Source: a virus
Lineage: Duplodnaviria > Caudoviricetes
IMG/VR virus record: IMGVR_UViG_3300023283_000094
Location: 1-58,403 of that record
DNA: 58,403 nucleotides
Reading direction: 5' to 3' (one strand)
Of this stretch, positions 4,546 to 31,668 are shown piece by piece. Positions within the stretch are counted from its first letter, which is position 1; each line of letters starts with the position of its first letter. Position numbers and translations under genes: made by a program. The notes under the pieces are model-generated. The model had not been told where the DNA came from, searched no databases, and saw only the letters and a program-made list of their open reading frames with translations.

Positions 4546-5262
4546 TTAATCTATCAGCCTGCCAAGGTGCTCCACGTACAGTTCGAGCGAGTTGTCACTG
4601 AGCCCGGGACATGTATTAACTTCGAGTACATATAGTTCATTGTCGGTCGACACCAGTACATCTACTGCACCAAAGTCCAGGTCGAGTGCGTTGACTGCGG
4701 CGATTGATGTGTATATATGTGGGTGTATTGGTTCTGACGGGTGCCTAAACGTCCACCCCGTCTCGTAATTCCAAACCAATTGATCGTATTCAGATTCGTC
4801 AGTAAGGCGTTTTTCTGATACCTTGACCACACGATTGTCGATTACGTGTACCCTGTATTCTGTCTTTTTAGGTATATACTGGACGAAGTAATCCGGTGCG
4901 CCCATCGGAGATATGTCACGTGGCTGTAGGTACAGTTTCAGGTCGCGTCCCTGCATATGTGACGAGCTCCGGCCCAACATCGGGAACTCCAGGTCAAACA
5001 TGCTGCCCGAAAACGGCGGCACGGAGATACCTGCGGCCTCCATGATATTGAGGCTGTTGAACTTGTCGGCATTGGCTTCGATAGCACGCCGCCGGTTCCA
5101 CGTGCGCTCTGATGGTATATACCGGATACGTCTGCTGGTACCCCACCTGATCAGATATTCCACGCGTTCGTCCGGCATTTCGCGGCCGTGGGGTATACCG
5201 AGCATATCGCCCAGTGCAGCGCCTGTGACGTGACCATGTCGCCCATAGAGTAGAAAGTTCAT
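4546..5262 (-). CDS. ATP-grasp ligase (RimK/YheCD-like)
   Basis: LIRWG, N...I...ADK, QYIPKKTEYRVHV, LDFGAVD, VLEVNTCPG. Confidence 0.9.
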   Translation of the reverse strand: MNFLLYGRHGHVTGAALGDMLGIPHGREMPDERVEYLIRWGTSRRIRYIPSERTWNRRRAIEANADKFNSLNIMEAAGISVPPFSGSMFDLEFPMLGRSSSHMQGRDLKLYLQPRDISPMGAPDYFVQYIPKKTEYRVHVIDNRVVKVSEKRLTDESEYDQLVWNYETGWTFRHPSEPIHPHIYTSIAAVNALDLDFGAVDVLVSTDNELYVLEVNTCPGLSDNSLELYVEHLGRLID

Positions 5263-5263
5263 T

Positions 5264-5494
5264 TTATCTGTACCTTATATTGGGGCGGTATTTTGTTATA
5301 TCCGTGGGGTTGTCAATTTTGATGTGTCCTGCCACCATCCCAACCTCCTTGATTTCTCTGTGCATACACGATTTGCATACTAACGCAAAAAACTCACACC
5401 TATTCTCCGCTTCACGGCCGGCGTCAAACATGGCATACTTAGCCGCCGCAGATTGACAGTTGTCGCACGGGGTGTCGTTGGGCCCAATTGCCAT
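5264..5494 (-). CDS. small Zn-ribbon protein
   Basis: CDNC...CKSC; translationally coupled. Confidence 0.55.
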   Translation of the reverse strand: MAIGPNDTPCDNCQSAAAKYAMFDAGREAENRCEFFALVCKSCMHREIKEVGMVAGHIKIDNPTDITKYRPNIRYR

Positions 5495-6720
5495 CAGTCT
5501 GATGCTCCAGCCTTCAGTGTGAGGTTTAACTGGTCATTGTCTGTAGGCAATACCACGGAGTTACAGTAGTCGCAACGCGCTAGCCTTGTATTGTCAATGA
5601 ATTTATAGTAATCATCGACACTATAGACTTCCTCCGCCTCGCGCAAACTACCGATCATACACGTTTCACATATAACCTGGCCCTTATATAAATATCCGCC
5701 GACACTGCCAACGCTCACCAGGTTTGTGTCGGTATTTGTTCCGTCAGTTTCCAGAAGGTCATTGAACGCCTCCTCGATGCGCCCCTCAAACAGCATATCC
5801 ACCTGTTTATCCATCCAGGAGAACGCTTTGGTGAAGCATGCACCACAGAAACTAGCCTTCTGGATATAATCGAAGAAGTCGTCGGCGATGATCGGGTCTC
5901 TGCGGTTCCAGTTGTCTGTGCTGGGGATATTACATATGCTCACCTTTGTGTCCTCGCATGATTTCAGATGATACCTGCTGCTGATTGGCGACCAGAACCA
6001 CGCATAACGCTCAAGATATGTAATCCAGTCGTCACGGCCTATCAGGTCGCTATTGAAGTCACTGCACGTTGTGACGTGATGATCGGTTTCCTCGTCACAG
6101 TACATGCAGTGCATCCGGTTGTGGAGATATGCCGACCCCAAGGTCGCCCAATTGCTCTGGTATCCTCGGTCGCGCTTGATGTATCTGAACGTTGTATTGG
6201 AAAACCAGTTGTTCTTGTCCCACACACCCTTGTCTGCATTTAGGATCGTGACGTTACCGTCGCCATCCAGAAATACGAGTTTACTGGTGCCGATAAACGA
6301 CTCGACCATCTGTTGGTAATACTTGTCTCCAATCCAGTCGACCGGTAGTCTCTCAATGAGTATGCGATCACGGAACGCGATCGTATCCACCTGATCGTCG
6401 GGCATGCCCTCCATCTTAATGACGCCATTGTGGGCAAAGACGGTATTGCTGTTATAGAAAAACGGATGACAGTTTTCGGTTGAAATTTCACCGTGTGTCG
6501 CCTTGCGCCAATGCAACAGGACCGGCAACCCACCGCTCGCCCTGATGCTCTTATATATCGGGTACATGAGGTTCATAGATTCCAGGTTCTTCACGATATG
6601 AACCTGACCGTTATGTGGCCATGCCATGCCGAACCCGTCGGGATGGTTCTGTGCACAACGCTCAAACAGATCGAAACTAAGGTCGTCACCGTCTGGCGCG
6701 TTATAAACTATGATGCAAAT
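5494..6720 (-). CDS. class II (Ntn) glutamine amidotransferase with C-terminal Zn fingers; ATT start
   Basis: Reads ATT-C-I-I-V-Y...HPDGFG...HWRKATHG..NCHPF..FAHNG..DT; GGAGG 5 nt upstream of ATT; ORF track truncates it at 6627. Confidence 0.88.
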   Translation of the reverse strand: MCIIVYNAPDGDDLSFDLFERCAQNHPDGFGMAWPHNGQVHIVKNLESMNLMYPIYKSIRASGGLPVLLHWRKATHGEISTENCHPFFYNSNTVFAHNGVIKMEGMPDDQVDTIAFRDRILIERLPVDWIGDKYYQQMVESFIGTSKLVFLDGDGNVTILNADKGVWDKNNWFSNTTFRYIKRDRGYQSNWATLGSAYLHNRMHCMYCDEETDHHVTTCSDFNSDLIGRDDWITYLERYAWFWSPISSRYHLKSCEDTKVSICNIPSTDNWNRRDPIIADDFFDYIQKASFCGACFTKAFSWMDKQVDMLFEGRIEEAFNDLLETDGTNTDTNLVSVGSVGGYLYKGQVICETCMIGSLREAEEVYSVDDYYKFIDNTRLARCDYCNSVVLPTDNDQLNLTLKAGASD

Positions 6721-6735
6721 TTTTGCCTCCCGTGG

Positions 6736-8187
6736 TTAGAGTATATGTTTCTTGACCAAAAACTCCCTAAGGCTCGGAAACCGCTTGGCGTGTTTGTCGA
6801 CGAAGGCTACAAACCCGTCTTGGGATATGTTGTTGTGTTTATGGGCGCCACTATATTCGAACGCCGCCACACAGAACTCAAGGTTCTTGAGGAACGTGCG
6901 CCATTGTAGCGTACCCCCGAAAACGCGAACCTCGATCGTATCGCGATGTTCGGCCACATATACAGCAACGTGTCGCTCTCCCGGGTCGGCGCCACCGGTT
7001 TTTGCTAGTAGCATAGAGTCCAGGTCGTCATAATCTTCCTTCTCTCTATCGATCCCTGCCCACCGTTCGAAGTTTGACAGGCTGATCCGTTCTGATATGA
7101 GCAGCGTAAAGCTGGGGTTGTCGTAAATAAGTTTAATGAAATTACGCAGCCTGTCGTCATCAAAGGCGTCACCGCTCATGTGTACGTGCATACCACATGT
7201 CTCTGTCTGGTCGCTCTCGAACCCATGACTACGCAAATATTCCAGCATGTCGGTGAACCGTTCTGCGTTTTCTAATGCCCACTCCAACGTGAACGGGTGC
7301 GTGACAACCTCGAACCCCTCTGTGATGCTACTATCGCTCTTACAATAGAATATACGGTCTACGGCGACCTGTCGCGCACCTTCTGACGGCAGCGTGTCGC
7401 CACGTGCCTCAACCTCAAGCTCGACACCCAGATACAGGTTACCCTTGCCGCGAAACTTTAGTGTATCTGGCTGGTATGTATAACTCCATATACCGGAACT
7501 GGGGCACCCACATGTACTGTTGTCGTACAGTGGCGTGTTGAGTCTGCGCCAACCACCACACGGCAGGCAGCGCTCGTAGCCCTCGTCGCGACATTCACCG
7601 CACACTTGATCGGAACCGGAGCGCATAAGCACATATCTGCGATAATAAACACCGCACCCACTACACCCTCGGTAGTGTCTGGCTATGCATTCGTCACATA
7701 TATCTGGGTCACCGTCAACAGATATATCTCTATCATCTCTGGCCCACAGGTTGTCACATGACTCACATACGATCGACCGCACTGCGCCCGACTCAACACA
7801 CGTTTCGCACGGTGCGTTATCACCAGACCGAACCCCTCTTTGCCACGCACGGTCGGCGTCTTCAGGAACATGATAATATGTATCGCACCCGCCACAGTAG
7901 GCTATCCGTGCGACACCCCAACACCGGTTACAGGAATACCCACCATTGCTTAGTTCGTGCGTACCGCCACTGGAACCACAAACAGCACAGGGCTCGTGTG
8001 TGCCCGTCGTTGTGTTGACTGGATTGATATTATGTGTGGATGCGTCAAATTCTTCACCGAATTCTAGCTCAAGTGTGAGGCGGAATCGGTCACAGTCGTC
8101 GCATGGGCACGTTGGACTATACGACTCAGCAAACCACTGTACGAAGTCCGCATCACGTGACGGTGGATCGGATATATTAAATGGCAT
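6736..8187 (-). CDS. amidoligase (COOH-NH2 ligase fold) with N-terminal CxxC array
   Basis: GVELEVE, KSDSSI..GFEVVTHP, TCGMHVH, TIEVRVFGGT; many CxxC pairs in the N-half. Confidence 0.9.
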   Translation of the reverse strand: MPFNISDPPSRDADFVQWFAESYSPTCPCDDCDRFRLTLELEFGEEFDASTHNINPVNTTTGTHEPCAVCGSSGGTHELSNGGYSCNRCWGVARIAYCGGCDTYYHVPEDADRAWQRGVRSGDNAPCETCVESGAVRSIVCESCDNLWARDDRDISVDGDPDICDECIARHYRGCSGCGVYYRRYVLMRSGSDQVCGECRDEGYERCLPCGGWRRLNTPLYDNSTCGCPSSGIWSYTYQPDTLKFRGKGNLYLGVELEVEARGDTLPSEGARQVAVDRIFYCKSDSSITEGFEVVTHPFTLEWALENAERFTDMLEYLRSHGFESDQTETCGMHVHMSGDAFDDDRLRNFIKLIYDNPSFTLLISERISLSNFERWAGIDREKEDYDDLDSMLLAKTGGADPGERHVAVYVAEHRDTIEVRVFGGTLQWRTFLKNLEFCVAAFEYSGAHKHNNISQDGFVAFVDKHAKRFPSLREFLVKKHIL

Positions 8188-8565
8188 TTACTCTTCCTCA
8201 AGCTCAACGACCCGGAGGTTGTCGTCGTTATCTGATATCACCGTTAGGGATACGATGTGTCGATCGTTGTCACCCGTATTTATATTGTATATGTTTATAG
8301 TTGTACCCTCTCCCGCGCTCATTAGTATGGACTCCGTGTGGTGTCTAACAGAATCATCGTCCATACCTTCAAACCTGACGATATCGAACTCGTCATCGCG
8401 TGTAACGAAGAGTAGGTAGACGCCGTGCGATATCACATATTCTCGGTGTTGTTGTGCGAGATTCTCTGTCATCTTCGTGTATCCTGTCCAGGTGATCAAA
8501 ATAATTCCATCCCGATAGGTTGTAGTGTCTTTTGCACCATAAGACCCTACAAAACGGTTCGCCAC
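8188..8565 (-). CDS. hypothetical acidic protein
   Basis: 125-aa ORF abutting the amidoligase start. Confidence 0.55.
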   Translation of the reverse strand: MANRFVGSYGAKDTTTYRDGIILITWTGYTKMTENLAQQHREYVISHGVYLLFVTRDDEFDIVRFEGMDDDSVRHHTESILMSAGEGTTINIYNINTGDNDRHIVSLTVISDNDDNLRVVELEEE

Positions 8566-8613
8566 AATATTTACACCAAACTACACAGCTCAGGTCGGGT
8601 GTTTGATTGTTGG

Positions 8614-9471
8614 TCACATTATGTTCCTATACCTTGCAAAGTAGGGGTTGGTATACGGATCAATATACATGGCACATTTCGTACAATGTTTATCTGCGTC
8701 TGTACTATATAGGGGCTCACAGTCACCATCAACAACGTCATCGGGAAGACAGTTATAGCATATCACTTCACCGTTTAACTTTAACCCCTCTTCTATTATC
8801 TCATTGGATTTGTGGTTGTTGCCTGGCTCGTGTATCAGTGGACAGTTTGATGTTGCGTGTGTCTGAGGGCTGTTGTGTACGTCACAAAACGACCCTCCCT
8901 CCGTGCGTCGAATATCTGCGTCATAAGAGTCTGGTAGGTAGAATCCACGGTGACTGAACCATGTGTCTCCCACCCAGATACCTTGCCCCTCGTTGATGAA
9001 CGCGAACCGCCCGCTCTTGTCCATAAACGCCATCTTGTTGTAACCTACCATTGCGCGCGTTTTGTCGAGAGCGCGCTTGCTAAAGATCGCGGTGCCAATC
9101 CTGTTGAGGACTGTATCACGAAAATGATGAGAGTCGGACTTGCCGTCATGTGTCATATATGGCCCGAAAAACATTGTGCCGTTATGTGCGAACGCTATAT
9201 TGCCACGCATGCGGAACGGTTGGCAGTTTTCGATTGACCTTGTGCCCACCGTGCGTATCCTGAAGTGTGCCAGAACCGCACGACCAAGATCACGTGCGTT
9301 GGTGTAGACGTTCCATAGCTGACCAAAGTTGTTCATGGACGTGAAAATATTGATACCGTCCCCGGTTGCATATGCAACGCCCATCCCGTCCGGGTTCTGT
9401 TCCGCGCAACTCCGTAGTGTCTGCTTGGGTAGCCTGTCAGTACCCTTTTTTTGGGCAACAATAATACAGAT
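8614..9471 (-). CDS. second class II glutamine amidotransferase; ATC start
   Basis: Reads ATC-C-I-I-V-A...NPDGMG...HFRIRTVG..NCQPF..FAHNG..SDS; GGGGGG 8 nt upstream; ORF track truncates it at 9384. Confidence 0.88.
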   Translation of the reverse strand: MCIIVAQKKGTDRLPKQTLRSCAEQNPDGMGVAYATGDGINIFTSMNNFGQLWNVYTNARDLGRAVLAHFRIRTVGTRSIENCQPFRMRGNIAFAHNGTMFFGPYMTHDGKSDSHHFRDTVLNRIGTAIFSKRALDKTRAMVGYNKMAFMDKSGRFAFINEGQGIWVGDTWFSHRGFYLPDSYDADIRRTEGGSFCDVHNSPQTHATSNCPLIHEPGNNHKSNEIIEEGLKLNGEVICYNCLPDDVVDGDCEPLYSTDADKHCTKCAMYIDPYTNPYFARYRNIM

Positions 9472-9721
9472 GTCGATAACCCCCCGTTTCTAGCTGTGGT
9501 GTAGGTGTGCTGCGATTATATGAGATATCGTGACTCTGTCGTGGAGGTTATAGGGCAATACTATATCTCTCATAGCAGTAAAGCCCGTGACGGTTGATAT
9601 GTCAAAACATCGTGGTGTATAGTATGTCATCTCCCGTCCAGTTCCGCTTCGCGACCAGCTCCGGTACTACCTAATACACCCCACACCGCTCAATGTTCCA
9701 TAGACAAGTCTATGCGTGGAT

Positions 9722-9967
9722 TTATTCCCATATAGGCGTCACTATTTTACCGTCTCGAACCACCGATCGCTCTGGCTGCCCGGGCCGCATTCCTCCTTGT
9801 GGTGTATAATGGTGTCTGATGTCTTTTAGGTCGAATTTCTCTACATGTCTACCCGTGTTCATGGTGACCCAACCTTCATCACGGATACGGTTTTTGATGG
9901 TTGGGCCGGAATATCTAGTGCCATTCTTAAGTTCGATTATATCGTTAGTCATAATTATCGCACTCAT
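9722..9967 (-). CDS. hypothetical protein
   Basis: ATGA-coupled to the upstream 53-aa ORF. Confidence 0.5.
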   Translation of the reverse strand: MSAIIMTNDIIELKNGTRYSGPTIKNRIRDEGWVTMNTGRHVEKFDLKDIRHHYTPQGGMRPGQPERSVVRDGKIVTPIWE

Positions 9968-10125
9968 AACAACTCTTCCCAACTGAACACCTTTATCTCG
10001 TCCAACTTACACAATAGCCGCTGGTAGCGGTCGCGGCTGTTGGCTTCTGCGTTGTCTTGTGTAAACTGGAGTGACGATTTTATGGTTGCTAACTCGTCAT
10101 CCGTAACTTCAATCTTGTGTGTCAT
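9964..10125 (-). CDS. 53-aa hypothetical protein (below ORF-track cutoff)
   Basis: MTHKIEVTDDEL...WEELL; ATGA overlaps at both ends. Confidence 0.55.
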   Translation of the reverse strand: MTHKIEVTDDELATIKSSLQFTQDNAEANSRDRYQRLLCKLDEIKVFSWEELL

Positions 10126-10400
10126 TTTTCTTCCCACGGGTGACTATCTGCCATGCGCTCAACCTCTTCGATGATGCTGCCCGGCCCACAGTCGTAGGTA
10201 GTGAACCATAGGCGGAAGCCCATAAACCCAACATCAACGTCAAAACCACCTAGAAAATGATCCACCTCCAGTGCAAGCTGTATGAACGTGAAATTGCGCC
10301 AGTTGTATCCAGCGCAAAACCACTCCAGCCAATCCTGGCTCACGCCGATATGAAAAACTCTCGTTTGTGGTCTGTTGTGGAACTCGATTTCCATCTTCAC
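10122..10400 (-). CDS. hypothetical protein
   Basis: RBS and tight packing. Confidence 0.55.
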   Translation of the reverse strand: MKMEIEFHNRPQTRVFHIGVSQDWLEWFCAGYNWRNFTFIQLALEVDHFLGGFDVDVGFMGFRLWFTTYDCGPGSIIEEVERMADSHPWEEK

Positions 10401-10447
10401 ATTTCCCCTTCGTGGCTATGTATGTTACTGACAGACATAGCAAGAAA

Positions 10448-10669
10448 TCATCGGTGGTCTATGTAACACAGAAATACCTGAAGTTCATCCCGCATTCCCG
10501 GTGGCACGTAGATTGTGCCCTCCGGACACCCGCACTCAAACCCGTATTCGATGCGGTAACGTGCAAAGCCACGCATACGACCAGGGTGTCGGTGACACGT
10601 AATCGCATCACGGTTTAGCATCACCTCTTCGACCAACTCTGGCTGTGGATACTCACGGCCTTCATTCAT
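10448..10669 (-). CDS. hypothetical protein
   Basis: ATG overlaps the upstream stop. Confidence 0.5.
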   Translation of the reverse strand: MNEGREYPQPELVEEVMLNRDAITCHRHPGRMRGFARYRIEYGFECGCPEGTIYVPPGMRDELQVFLCYIDHR

Positions 10670-11398: not shown

Positions 11399-11614
11399 TC
11401 ACCCTACGCTTCTGTGTTTGTGCGTGTCGTCGCGGAAGCGGACAACGTAAAACGCACCAATCCTCTCAGCATACAGGCGTTCATTCATGTGGTTACTAAT
11501 GTCTATCAAAAGGTCATGAACGTCAGTGGCCGGATATCTATCTGCGCTAAGCCGCAACCTCCGGTTGACTCGCAACGCCTTTGCGTATCGTCTTATCTGC
11601 TCGTGCTCATACAT
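11399..11614 (-). CDS. hypothetical protein
   Basis: Packed co-directional ORF. Confidence 0.45.
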   Translation of the reverse strand: MYEHEQIRRYAKALRVNRRLRLSADRYPATDVHDLLIDISNHMNERLYAERIGAFYVVRFRDDTHKHRSVG

Positions 11615-17057: not shown

Positions 17058-17131
17058 TGGGCCTGGCAGGACTTGAACCTGCGACCATCGCATTATGAGT
17101 GCGCCGCTCTGACCAACTGAGCTACAGGCCC
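17058..17131 (-). tRNA. tRNA with CAT anticodon, Ile2 (lysidine) type; no encoded CCA
   Basis: GGGCCTG TA GCTC AGTTGGTCA GAGC G GCGCA CTCATAA TGCGA TGGTC GCAGG TTCAAGT CCTGC CAGGCCC A; resembles bacterial tRNA-Ile2 and lacks fMet determinants. Confidence 0.9.
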
Positions 17132-28894: not shown

Positions 28895-29024
28895 CCGTAA
28901 ATCCATATATGCCAACAACCTACGGGATCGCAAGGAATAGCCTACGGCCCGCACATACTTCACGATACGTGCTACCTACCTAACTGATGTACCGTAAATC
29001 CATATGCGCCATCAACTTGCGTAG

Positions 29025-29040
29025 TGGCACGGCTTTTGCT
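29025..29040 (+). promoter_or_regulatory. sigma-54-type promoter, rightward
   Basis: TGGCACGGCTTTTGCT. Confidence 0.7.
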
Positions 29041-29133
29041 GACAGCTACGGCGATTGACGTAGACCAATCGGATTTTCCCCGGATCGCTGTAAGTCCATG
29101 TGTACCACCAACTTACGGATTTCTTGACAAGCC

Positions 29134-29162
29134 TTGACGGGCCCCTGGCCCGTACCTATCTT
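29134..29162 (+). promoter_or_regulatory. sigma-70-type promoter
   Basis: TTGACG-17 nt-TATCTT upstream of 29206. Confidence 0.55.
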
Positions 29163-29205
29163 GTTGGTACGATAGGAGACACTACTCACTACGGGAGGAC
29201 GCGCC

Positions 29206-29415
29206 ATGCACCACTACACACTACAGCTCGTCGAGATATACGAGTATCGTGGGGAGCCGATCCGGACGGTGGAGCGGGAGGAGACGTACCTGCGCAGGTC
29301 GCACGCAGTTGCAGCTGCCCGCAACATGAGAGTATCCGCCAGGGTCCGTGCCACGCATACGGGTGCATCATATGCGATATTGCTGGACGGGACGGTAGTA
29401 TACTGCACCGACTGA
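29206..29415 (+). CDS. hypothetical protein
   Basis: GGGAGG RBS. Confidence 0.6.
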   Translation: MHHYTLQLVEIYEYRGEPIRTVEREETYLRRSHAVAAARNMRVSARVRATHTGASYAILLDGTVVYCTD

Positions 29416-29427
29416 CGGAGGAGCTCC

Positions 29428-29526
29428 ATGCGCCCCAAGACGCGACACCGTTTGGCCCTGGCTATCATCATCGGCGTGCCGTGGCTGACCCTACTGATAC
29501 TGATCTTGGCACTCGAACTCTCGTAG
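29428..29526 (+). CDS. 32-aa single-pass membrane peptide
   Basis: MRPKTRHRLALAIIIGVPWLTLLILILALELS; GGAGGAG RBS. Confidence 0.6.
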   Translation: MRPKTRHRLALAIIIGVPWLTLLILILALELS

Positions 29527-29539
29527 CGGGAGGAGCTCC

Positions 29540-29635
29540 ATGCACCGGACGCGCATCATCGCATCGATCCTCGCGCCGCTAATACCCATAGTGCTGACAC
29601 TATGGGCAGTCTGGCGCGGACTCACTACTCTATAA
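29540..29635 (+). CDS. 31-aa single-pass membrane peptide
   Basis: MHRTRIIASILAPLIPIVLTLWAVWRGLTTL; same GGAGGAGCTCCATGC leader. Confidence 0.6.
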   Translation: MHRTRIIASILAPLIPIVLTLWAVWRGLTTL

Positions 29636-29648
29636 TGGGGGGGCGATT

Positions 29649-29981
29649 ATGTCTTGCTTGATGGATCTTCGGGATATCCGCGACCGGGTCGGTCTCGAGA
29701 CCCTGGGGGATGCGGTACAGTGGGGCCGCCGCCGCATCGAGGAGTCGCATCAGCACGTGGATTTCATCGTGGTCGCGATCACTACTGGGGTCACGGGGGC
29801 CGGTGATATGAGGATCGATATCACACCGTATCGCTACCCAGGGTATGCGGCTAGGGTTGTCGCGCTATGCCAGCCGCTGCCAGAGATACGGTGTATGATC
29901 GTCTATGGTCATCACGATACCGTGCGCGGGCGAGACGGCCTGTCTGGAGTACTGATCTACGACAGCGAGGGGGAGCTATGA
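29649..29981 (+). CDS. hypothetical protein
   Basis: G-run RBS, coupled to next ORF. Confidence 0.55.
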   Translation: MSCLMDLRDIRDRVGLETLGDAVQWGRRRIEESHQHVDFIVVAITTGVTGAGDMRIDITPYRYPGYAARVVALCQPLPEIRCMIVYGHHDTVRGRDGLSGVLIYDSEGEL

Positions 29982-30139
29982 CTATCCCAGTGGAGGAGCA
30001 GCTCACTATCATACGGCGGCCGATAGTCTGCGGTGCGTGCGACCAGTACCGGGAGAGACTGGTGTGGATCGACGGTACCGGGTGGTACTGCCTGCGGTGT
30101 GTCTACCGCCATAGGGCACGCCGGCGCCGGGACGCATAG
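29978..30139 (+). CDS. 53-aa Zn-ribbon, Arg-rich protein
   Basis: CGAC...CLRC; ATGA overlap; followed by a hairpin near 30163-30191. Confidence 0.55.
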   Translation: MTIPVEEQLTIIRRPIVCGACDQYRERLVWIDGTGWYCLRCVYRHRARRRRDA

Positions 30140-30710
30140 ACGACACACCATACTCTCTAACACAGGGGTCGGGAGACTATCTCCCGGCCCCGTAGTGTAT
30201 CTATAGGGCATCCGCCCCCATAGTCACCCTATAGTCCAGGGGCCCGCCCGCCCCCAAAAAGCGTCCCAGAATCCTCCACAACGTCCGCAACGCTCACGCC
30301 CCATACCCTACCCTACCTGCAACGCTCGCGCCCCATATGACTATCGCAGCAGCCCTCTGACTATCATACTCTATACATGCACCTATATCAGTAAGATATA
30401 GTGTGTATGGTGTGTATGGTGTAGATGTGGTGTATAGGGTATGTGTGTGTATGTGGGGTATGTGTATAGGGTAACCTCCGCGCACCCTCTCTTTGCGCCA
30501 AAGTATCCCATGTAGAGTAGCAGGGATTACGTTGGCGTGCGTAGGTCTGTGGTATGTGGTGTAGTGTAGGTAGGTTACGGTGGTGTACGTACTATAGTTG
30601 GCGTTGACGTTCTACGTGGTGTAGTGTATATGGTAGTACGGCGTGGCACGTAGGTACCGATAGCGTCGCATAATTATGCACAGACGTGACCAGAATATCC
30701 ATCGGTATGG

Positions 30711-30726
30711 TGGCACGCACCTTGCT
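30711..30726 (+). promoter_or_regulatory. sigma-54-type promoter facing the virion arm
   Basis: TGGCACGCACCTTGCT. Confidence 0.6.
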
Positions 30727-31668
30727 ACATACTCCATGTAACGTACCATACGCTACGACGTCCCACGTACCAGATACTATCCCACATCAAGTAACTGCCA
30801 CCCTGGCATGAAGTACTCCGCCCCAAGTAGCCGCCAATATGTCATGACAATCTGACCGTGTATCTTTTTCAAGTACTTGGGTACCCGTGGCTCCGCTAGG
30901 GGGATGACCCCCCTGCACCCAGAGTCGGCCTTCCGCGCCCAGGAAGTCGCGTCGTTTACCTTACCGCGTTACCGGGACGATGTGGTGTATCGGACTCTGT
31001 CTTTTTGTATCCGGGGACGGTTAGTGGCACCCATGGGTGGGTGATGTTATGTATCATGTTACAGCGTTAGTCGTACGCACTTTTCAGGTGATTGTTTTTC
31101 ATCTAAGGGGTTGGGGTTTTTGTGGGGCGGGGGTGGTATAAAAAGGGTTTTCGGTACCGTTGAGCGTTAGAAGCCCCAGAATCGCTTTTAACGTCCATCA
31201 ACCTTACACCAATACCATGACATAGGGTGTGGGGTCCGTGGACGTTTTAGGGGCATTCTCGTGCGTCTGAGGGGTGTTGTTAGTGGTGGTGTGTATCACC
31301 CACGGCACATGACCCACGGTGTCACGTGGTTTTTCACCTGAGTGGGTACGTTGTCACGTCACACTCTCTCAGCAGAATGTATCTCTACTTTCTTTTTTTG
31401 GATATACGTAGTATATCTTTTTTTCTTTGTATCTAAGGTATCAAGGTACCATTGTATCAGGAGGTTTTTTCTTTGTTTCTTTTTATATTACTTTTTCTTT
31501 ATTTCTTTTTTGCTGTGCGGTGTATCGTACACACGCCGTTGGTGTGGTTTTGGGTTGGGGTGTGCGGCCGGGGTTGCGAGTCGTGCAATAAGTTGGTAGT
31601 TTCATTGGGTGTGATAGGATCCACTGTCCACGAACGTTACACTAACCCTACAGACCAGACGAGACAAC

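Follow-up and report, generated by a model that had tools for sequence, protein, structure and literature searches.

The two glutaminase genes and their proposed start sites

Here, we describe two genes for class-II glutamine amidotransferases (GATases) in a viral DNA of 58,403 bp (Duplodnaviria; Caudoviricetes; IMG/VR record IMGVR_UViG_3300023283_000094), both of which appear to start not at ATG but at ATT or ATC, directly before the codon of the catalytic cysteine. The record, which was analysed at its full length and is referred to below as the window, has an estimated completeness of 59% and a G+C content of 55%. The two genes belong to a module that runs along the minus strand from 9471 to 4546 and contains, in this order, GATase gene 2, two small open reading frames (ORFs), an amidoligase gene, GATase gene 1, a 76-codon ORF and a gene for a RimK-like ATP-grasp protein, bringing a PF12224 amidoligase, class-II GATases and an ATP-grasp enzyme together on one strand. 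Gene 1 occupies 5494-6720 (stop TGA at 5496-5494) and encodes 407 residues counted from the cysteine, with a glutaminase domain in residues 1 to about 180 and a cysteine-rich C-terminal half. Gene 2 occupies 8614-9471 (stop TGA at 8616-8614) and encodes 284 residues counted in the same way.

On the minus strand, the start region of gene 1 reads TAA CCA CGG GAG GCA AAA ATT TGC ATC ATA, and that of gene 2 reads TAG AAA CGG GGG GTT ATC GAC ATC TGT ATT ATT. The proposed initiation codons, ATT at 6718-6720 and ATC at 9469-9471, adjoin the cysteine codons TGC (6717-6715) and TGT (9468-9466), respectively. The TAA stop of the amidoligase gene (6738-6736) lies in frame 15 nt upstream of the ATT, and an in-frame TAG (9490-9492), which ends a 46-codon ORF, lies 18 nt upstream of the ATC. 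In neither gene does an in-frame ATG, GTG or TTG occur on the way from this stop to the cysteine, as would be expected of genes initiated at AUH (H being A, C or U). The first canonical in-frame starts are the ATG at 6627, codon 36 of the open frame of gene 1, and the ATG at 9384, codon 35 of that of gene 2, the two open frames spanning 413 and 291 codons. Both proposed starts are preceded by a ribosome-binding site, namely a Shine-Dalgarno (SD) sequence GGGAGG (6726-6731) 5 nt upstream of the ATT and an SD-like run GGGGGG (9480-9485) 8 nt upstream of the ATC. The sequence therefore reads exactly as stated in the initial annotation, which had placed an ATT and an ATC right before the cysteine, had found canonical starts missing and had pointed to SD-like runs at normal spacing. 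The public gene calls for these loci, P0001 (from GTG 6594, 366 residues) and P0121 (from ATG 9384, 256 residues), both lack the catalytic cysteine.

We compared the strength of these SD sequences using duplex energies, computed against a generic consensus anti-SD rather than that of the host, and with positions on the same strand as background (median -3.7 kcal/mol, 5th percentile -9.4, 1st percentile -12.3). The energy before the ATT at 6720 is -10.3 kcal/mol, beyond the 5th percentile, and that before the ATC at 9471 is -13.8 kcal/mol, beyond the 1st. The ATG starts of the neighbouring genes have values of -5.7 to -7.1 kcal/mol, and the downstream ATG codons at 6627 and 9384 have -3.9 and -3.5 kcal/mol. 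The strongest SD pairings of the cluster are thus those of the two ATH codons, while the downstream ATG codons are without a strong SD. Folding of the start regions is no stronger than that of shuffled sequences, with z-scores of -0.33 (gene 1) and +1.65 (gene 2).

The initial annotation had called for a check of the sequence at 6718-6720 and 9469-9471, and independent contigs show no ATG at either site. A Logan contig from run X1 (depth 10), possibly the sample from which the record derives, has no differences from the window over 5400-9700 (4301 nt). From a second sample of the same study, X2 (depth 2), a 151-nt contig covers 6603-6753, including the TAA and the ATT, again with no differences; X2 covers no more than three short pieces, and X3 yielded none. 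Among the public runs listed for this DNA, none is of RNA, which bears on expression in neither direction. The ATT has therefore been seen in two runs and the ATC in X1 alone. Since the independent contigs are identical to the record at both sites, we consider an assembly error very improbable at the ATT and improbable at the ATC.

Glutaminase identity and catalytic residues

Both proteins match the Pfam family GATase_4 (PF13230; cut-off 23 bits), with 41.1 bits (E-value 1.3e-10) for gene 1 and 27.3 bits (2.1e-6) for gene 2, and both match PHROG 25883 (6.1e-14 and 5.1e-7), with protein residue 1 aligned to profile position 2. We built an alignment of 45 family sequences, including those of both window genes, in which 12 columns are invariant. 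All 12 are kept in both genes (C1, G28, G30, H69, R71, G76, P85, H96, N97, G98, D111 and S173), C1 being present in 45 of 45 sequences. That the cysteine needs to be the N-terminal residue, as the initial annotation had held, accords with its place as the invariant first residue of the family. The family profile matches GlmS, PurF and class-II GATase structures.

The fold prediction covers gene 1 alone. Its domain was modelled by AlphaFold2 with a mean predicted local distance difference test score of 93.1; the model has the four-layer fold of N-terminal nucleophile (Ntn) hydrolases, and the cysteine opens the first strand (E2-6). A Foldseek search with this model retrieved the glutaminase domain of GlmS (1xff, 4.1e-7) and the Ntn hydrolase EgtC (4zfl, 4.7e-5). 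Judged from these sequence and model comparisons, the best explanation is that both genes encode functional class-II (Ntn) glutaminase subunits of a phage amidoligase/ATP-grasp module. The window genes share their fold, the invariant Cys-1 and the R, N-G and D positions with the class-II GATases (GlmS, PurF, EgtC, the YafJ-like GATase_4 proteins and PHROG 25883). They differ from these in form, being stand-alone phage domains of about 180 residues fused to cysteine-rich (CxxC) C-terminal regions. They also differ in their starts, ATT and ATC, whereas every other locus of our first surveys has ATG, GTG or TTG.

The codon before the cysteine across the family

The norm of the family is a protein that starts with Met-Cys, as do 255 of 266 homologous protein clusters. 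Such a start is found in 113 of the 120 hits to gene 1 and in 142 of the 148 new hits to gene 2. The 13 proteins without it comprise the two truncated calls from the window, seven N-terminally truncated homologues (P0009, P0064, P0084, P0098, P0110, P0154 and P0192), three with a short extension before an internal Met-Cys and one that begins with Leu-Cys. At most seven of the 266 clusters are truncated in such a way that a non-canonical start could be hidden. Six of the truncated homologues (P0009, P0084, P0098, P0110, P0154 and P0192) have called proteins that begin 6-35 residues past the expected cysteine, and the call for P0192 begins at the same conserved methionine as a truncated call from the window. 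These six are candidates for further non-canonical starts.

At the nucleotide level, a profile from a 14-sequence alignment (the 45-sequence set being too diverse) was used to survey the 80 best loci in IMG/VR. The 80th is cut off; in the 79 that are readable, the codon before the cysteine is ATG 77 times and GTG twice. Among GenBank phage homologues, the codon is ATG in five of six and TTG in the sixth. The peptide CIAIYKP has 110 matches in IMG/VR, 14 of which are due to chance; the other 96 are family genes, and all of these have ATG. If the rate in the family is at most about 3%, two such genes would be expected in one genome by chance with a probability below about 0.1%.

Pattern searches of IMG/VR and of GTDB genomes for an ATH codon in this position gave no family member among the matches listed. 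The ATH-CIAIYKP pattern has no match in IMG/VR, and its 15 matches in GTDB genomes are chance only; with the ATH-CIAILN pattern in IMG/VR, no family member was present among the at least 120 matches listed. Within the window, none of the other coding-strand frames of at least 70 codons that were listed needs a near-cognate start. The other long 5' open stretches listed there are either shadow frames or lead into a canonical start that has an SD before it.

Further probable ATT and ATC starts in metagenomes

We also scanned metagenome contigs with the pattern ATH-TGY-ATH-GCN-ATH-TAY-AAR-CC. The scan returned 26 matching stretches, of which 22 are chance matches with stops just downstream and four are true genes of the family. 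The codon before the cysteine is ATT in three of these (L205, L219 and L220) and ATC in the fourth (L217). The tabulation of this codon that the initial annotation had proposed thus shows ATG, GTG or TTG in the IMG/VR and GenBank homologues and ATT or ATC in these four metagenome genes.

An SD precedes the start in all four metagenome genes, in three of them as AAGGAG, and an in-frame stop lies a few codons upstream in each. In L219, a TTG follows directly after the upstream stop, but it lies upstream of the SD. L217, L219 and L220 are complete ORFs with 353-386 residues from the cysteine (354-387 including the ATH codon), while L205 leaves its contig. Amidoligase and ATP-grasp genes adjoin L219 and L220, and a local tblastn search of the four loci found one GATase copy in each.

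L205, L217 and L219 are close enough to one another for the stretch between the proposed start and the first ATG to be compared. Over codons 2-31, L217 and L219 differ with a nonsynonymous rate (dN) of 0.19 and a synonymous rate (dS) of 0.78; in the downstream domain, dN is likewise 0.19 and dS is saturated. Over the same 30 codons, L205 and L219 differ by three synonymous changes and no nonsynonymous one. When the three genes are pooled, 12 of 24 changes are synonymous, against about 20% expected (p 0.0012 in a rough binomial test, multiple hits being left out of account). The start triplet itself varies among these three genes, being ATT or ATC but never ATG. Because of the excess of synonymous change, the codons between the ATH and the first ATG appear to be translated in L205, L217 and L219. 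This constraint is the best evidence that such starts work, and it points to function through relatives and not through the window's own genes.

Three of the metagenome genes have two ATH codons in succession before the cysteine: ATT-ATC in L217 (minus strand, 1301-1312), ATT-ATT in L219 (minus strand, 11529-11540) and ATC-ATT in L205 (plus strand, 1621-1632). The distance to the SD is 7-8 nt for the codon beside the cysteine and 4-5 nt for its neighbour, and either could be the start. The four stretches look AT-rich in comparison with the window (55% G+C), and these phages and that of the window evidently infect different hosts.

Relationships and number of origins

Genes 1 and 2 are 31% identical over 179 residues, counted from Cys 1. 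Their nearest relatives with a Met-Cys start are closer, at 43% identity to gene 1 and 37-41% to gene 2. Searches for near relatives of the locus found none: no GenBank phage matched 5000-10000 by megablast, no relative of either GATase emerged when IMG/VR was scanned with each protein singly, and a word-based search with gene 2 returned only itself.

In a tree with a richer set of relatives, gene 1 joins P0002-P0005, with a support of 92 in the Shimodaira-Hasegawa-like approximate likelihood ratio test (SH-aLRT), and gene 2 joins the P0122/P0125 set (85-90). The metagenome examples fall into a separate clade (SH-aLRT 98). A tree constrained to make genes 1 and 2 sisters is 26 log-likelihood units worse and is rejected by the approximately unbiased (AU) test (p 0.012); on an earlier, poorer data set, the joint tree was not rejected (AU p 0.18). 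A single origin of the ATT/ATC trait is ruled out by the same test on the richer set. A tree that joins L220 with L205, L217 and L219 is not rejected by the AU test (p 0.22).

As genes 1 and 2 are not sisters, the change would have arisen at least three times; the trees indicate three or four origins, two of them in this genome. Judged by these topologies, the change is convergent within one genome and not inherited. The initial annotation had taken the two genes as diverged paralogues with conserved throttling of translation. Throttling stands as the best reading of the starts, but a conserved ancestral codon does not, given the AU result and the greater closeness of each gene to Met-Cys starters.

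Interpretation of the ATT and ATC starts

From the sequence comparisons above, we consider it likely that both genes are genuinely initiated, at low efficiency, at non-AUG codons, AUU in gene 1 and AUC in gene 2. In this mechanism, the 30S subunit would bind the strong SD, and the initiator fMet-tRNA would read AUU or AUC despite a third-base mismatch, so that the protein begins with fMet-Cys. Deformylase and methionine aminopeptidase would then expose the catalytic cysteine as residue 1, as in the relatives that start with ATG; cysteine is among the small second residues that permit removal of the methionine. The combination of a weak start codon with a strong SD would give a defined but low rate of initiation, which would keep the free glutaminase scarce relative to its partner enzymes. 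The ATT and ATC starts thus probably keep these enzymes at low dose. At gene 1, part of the initiation could come from ribosomes that re-initiate after finishing the amidoligase, and some coupling is plausible there because the ATT lies only 15 nt past the amidoligase stop. Coupling cannot hold in general, because L219 and probably gene 2 have no translated upstream gene. The production of the protein, its start with fMet, its low level of expression and any role of initiation factor 3 (IF3) are inferred here rather than shown.

A broader proposal would make phage Ntn glutaminase genes a hot-spot in which selection has exchanged ATG for ATT or ATC time and again, with the weak start as a physiological gate and not just a damper. 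The gate would open only to ribosomes leaving the partner gene, or only under a loosening of IF3 proofreading in the infected cell, and the potentially wasteful free enzyme would thereby stay within the amount of its amidoligase and ATP-grasp partners. We regard this as speculative, with a low chance of being right.

Several observations weigh against initiation at the ATT and ATC. In gene 1, an out-of-frame TTG (6718-6716) overlaps the ATT-TGC and opens a mini-ORF of five codons (MHHSL; 6701-6718, stop at 6703-6701). This TTG sits 7 nt from the SD, is a candidate competing start and may capture most initiations; under low-efficiency initiation at the ATT, the same TTG and its short ORF may divert ribosomes and lower the output further. 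In gene 2, the SD is a run of G and not a classic GGAGG, a second ATC (9477) lies two codons upstream, and the ATC at 9471 is confirmed solely in X1, the possible source of the record. The generic anti-SD and the initiation efficiencies known from Escherichia coli may not fit the host of this phage. The metagenome scan has no denominator, and its four finds give no frequency of such starts. Finally, the closest relatives (43% identity for gene 1 and 41% for gene 2) are too distant for dN/dS on the first 30-35 codons, and a recent loss of the start codon in the window genes is possible.

Such a loss is at the heart of the main rival explanation, according to which the genes are silenced or decaying: ATG was lost, and these young pseudogenes now give no protein or a product from a downstream ATG or GTG without the nucleophile. 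ATG is indeed the family norm, the gene callers took the downstream GTG 6594 and ATG 9384, and the window genes have no close relative in which selection could be measured. Silencing would, however, need two independent hits on the third base of a 3-nt target, both of which gave ATH, and ATH is among the few near-cognate classes with residual initiation (1-2% of AUG). The remaining coding sequences, about 850 and 1200 nt, are free of stops and frameshifts, and none of the 12 invariant residues has been lost, not even in the part that would go untranslated. The strongest SDs of the cluster stand exactly before the ATH codons, with none before the downstream ATGs, and the same arrangement is under purifying selection in other phages. 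We therefore think silencing unlikely. Obligate translational coupling, in which ribosomes that have terminated 15-18 nt upstream and re-initiate are the main or sole users of the ATH codons and the GATase yield follows translation of the upstream ORF, is a variant of low-efficiency initiation rather than its opposite. The stop of the amidoligase gene 15 nt before gene 1, that of the 46-codon ORF 18 nt before gene 2 and an amidoligase stop 22 nt upstream of L220 would suit it, and a precedent is reported for infC, where the AUU lies 3 nt past the upstream stop (UAA GGU AUU) and re-initiation and de novo initiation are about equal, re-initiation providing half of the service (PMC3592434). Against this, the ATT of L219 has no upstream ORF but several in-frame stops and then a divergent gene, the ORF upstream of gene 2 matches no family and would be interrupted by a promoter-like site at 9542-9515, and strong SDs favour de novo binding of the 30S subunit. 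We regard coupling of an obligate kind as unlikely.

The remaining two explanations do without initiation at the ATH codons. The cysteine could be freed by Ntn autoproteolysis from a longer precursor, made by readthrough of the TAA and TAG or by initiation further upstream, for example at ATC 9477. Both upstream stops are in frame, and Ntn hydrolases and some class-II GATases, such as Bacillus subtilis PurF, are made with propeptides. The initial annotation had offered readthrough with self-cleavage as its alternative, but this has fared poorly: L219 has no upstream ORF, the gene upstream of L220 is out of frame, and the one tRNA of the window has the anticodon CAT, which leaves the window without a suppressor tRNA for two different stops. 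Intact standard-code ORFs of 838-966 codons speak against recoding, the G-run is just 2 nt from ATC 9477, and a plain Met-Cys start serves 255 of the 266 relatives; we regard a precursor as very improbable. The record is a metagenome assembly of about 10x depth, and a sequencing or assembly error might have altered the third base of two ATG codons. An independent assembler gave the identical sequence over 4301 nt, with the ATT repeated in a second sample; two errors at homologous positions are improbable in themselves, and four further examples come from unrelated assemblies. This makes error as a source of both codons exceedingly unlikely. Low-efficiency initiation at AUU and AUC remains the explanation that we prefer.

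Relation to known systems

In E. coli, AUA, AUC, AUU and CUG are reported to initiate at 1-2% of AUG, and a protein started at AUC carried methionine as its N-terminal residue (bioRxiv 10.1101/063800). In another reporter, AUU was 6-8 times weaker than AUG (PMC3592434), and AUU mRNAs are described as competing poorly at low temperature, under nutrient limitation and in the presence of ppGpp (PMC5499595). The AUU-initiated E. coli genes named in the relevant passage of bioRxiv 10.1101/063800 are infC, which encodes IF3, and pcnB only. The window genes resemble both in having a near-cognate AUH start behind an SD, and infC also in the position of this start a few nucleotides past the stop of the upstream gene. 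For infC and pcnB, the accounts cited hold that the start is thought to limit translation and that IF3 discriminates against it. The window genes differ in being phage genes, one of which would start with AUC. Their product is no initiation factor and no autoregulatory logic is apparent; the start codon abuts the residue that must become the mature N-terminus, and the ATT/ATC trait would have arisen at least three times within one enzyme family.

Phage modules of amidoligase, GAT-II and ATP-grasp genes were reportedly described by Iyer et al. in 2009. The amidoligase-GATase pair is reported from the OM43 phages MEP401 and MEP402 and from more than 30 metagenomic viral genomes (PMC10580990). 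The window shares its gene content, a PF12224 amidoligase, a GATase and a RimK-like ATP-grasp protein, with the modules of MEP401/402, phiEco32 and mycobacteriophage Marvin, but differs from these in having two non-sister GATases that flank the amidoligase, both with non-AUG starts. AUU initiation (infC and pcnB), the enzyme family and the phage module are therefore already known. What is new is the combination: an ATT or ATC that abuts the catalytic cysteine of phage Ntn glutaminases, recurrent, convergent and twice in one genome, together with comparative evidence of translation. A literature search by title and abstract turned up no account of GATase genes, whether from phages or of class II, that start at a non-AUG codon.

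These starts matter for annotation, since standard gene callers remove 28-41 residues, including the catalytic nucleophile, from such proteins, and functional enzymes would therefore be read as dead fragments. The homologues P0192 and P0154 look truncated in the same way as the window calls P0001 and P0121. Confirmed natural AUU starts are very rare among bacteria, and for the biology of initiation the window and metagenome genes provide a small set of natural AUU and AUC starts whose translation is backed by sequence comparison, from phages that evidently differ in host. That both glutaminase genes of one module were weakened convergently suggests that the dosage of the ammonia-donating subunit matters, and such a dosage effect offers a simple, testable handle on this phage module.

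Neighbouring genes and other features of the window

The amidoligase gene (6736-8187, minus strand) has an ATG start and encodes 483 residues, with matches to PF12224 (32.5 bits against a cut-off of 22) and PHROG 16683 (1.3e-29). The Pfam match is confined to residues 282-355, and the first 230 residues or so are dense in CxxC pairs. Cysteine-rich regions are also found at the C-terminus of both GATases, where the 14-sequence alignment shows four almost invariant cysteine columns that form two CxxC pairs. This conservation suggests zinc ribbons that may dock the subunits to one another. The module is completed by the RimK-like ATP-grasp gene (4546-5262, minus strand), which matches PF08443 with 22 bits against a cut-off of 21 and Dala_Dala_lig_C with an E-value of 4.3e-5.

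The gap between gene 2 and the amidoligase gene (8188-8617, minus strand) holds a cysteine-rich ORF of 74 residues with CxxC pairs, from GTG 8617 to 8393, and a second small ORF of 94 residues, from ATG 8472 to 8188. They share about 80 nt, read in different frames, and Pfam gave no match for either. One of the two starts may be misplaced, or the ORFs may be linked by a frameshift. On the other side of gene 2, the 46-codon ORF that ends at the TAG extends over 9630-9490 (minus strand) and has no family match.

A promoter-like sequence, ACGACA-16-TATAAT (10 of 12 positions), lies within this ORF at 9515-9542 on the minus strand. It is a consensus match only, the region containing eight such sites against 7.5 expected; if it were used, the transcript would begin within that ORF, some 35 nt ahead of the ATC. 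An Rfam search of 5000-10500 returned a single sub-threshold chance match and nothing else.

The sole tRNA of the window, with the anticodon CAT, is located at 17058-17131 on the minus strand, and we considered it as a possible phage initiator. Initiator tRNAs are recognized by their 1-72 end and by three G-C pairs in the anticodon stem. In the window tRNA, the 1-72 end is paired and that stem lacks three consecutive G-C pairs, and it was rejected as an initiator. It may be an elongator methionine tRNA or an isoleucine tRNA of the lysidine type.

Over about 1-31 kb the coding strand of the window is minus, and over about 31-56 kb it is plus, the switch falling around 28900-31300, where long ORFs are few. 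This stretch is probably a divergent control region.

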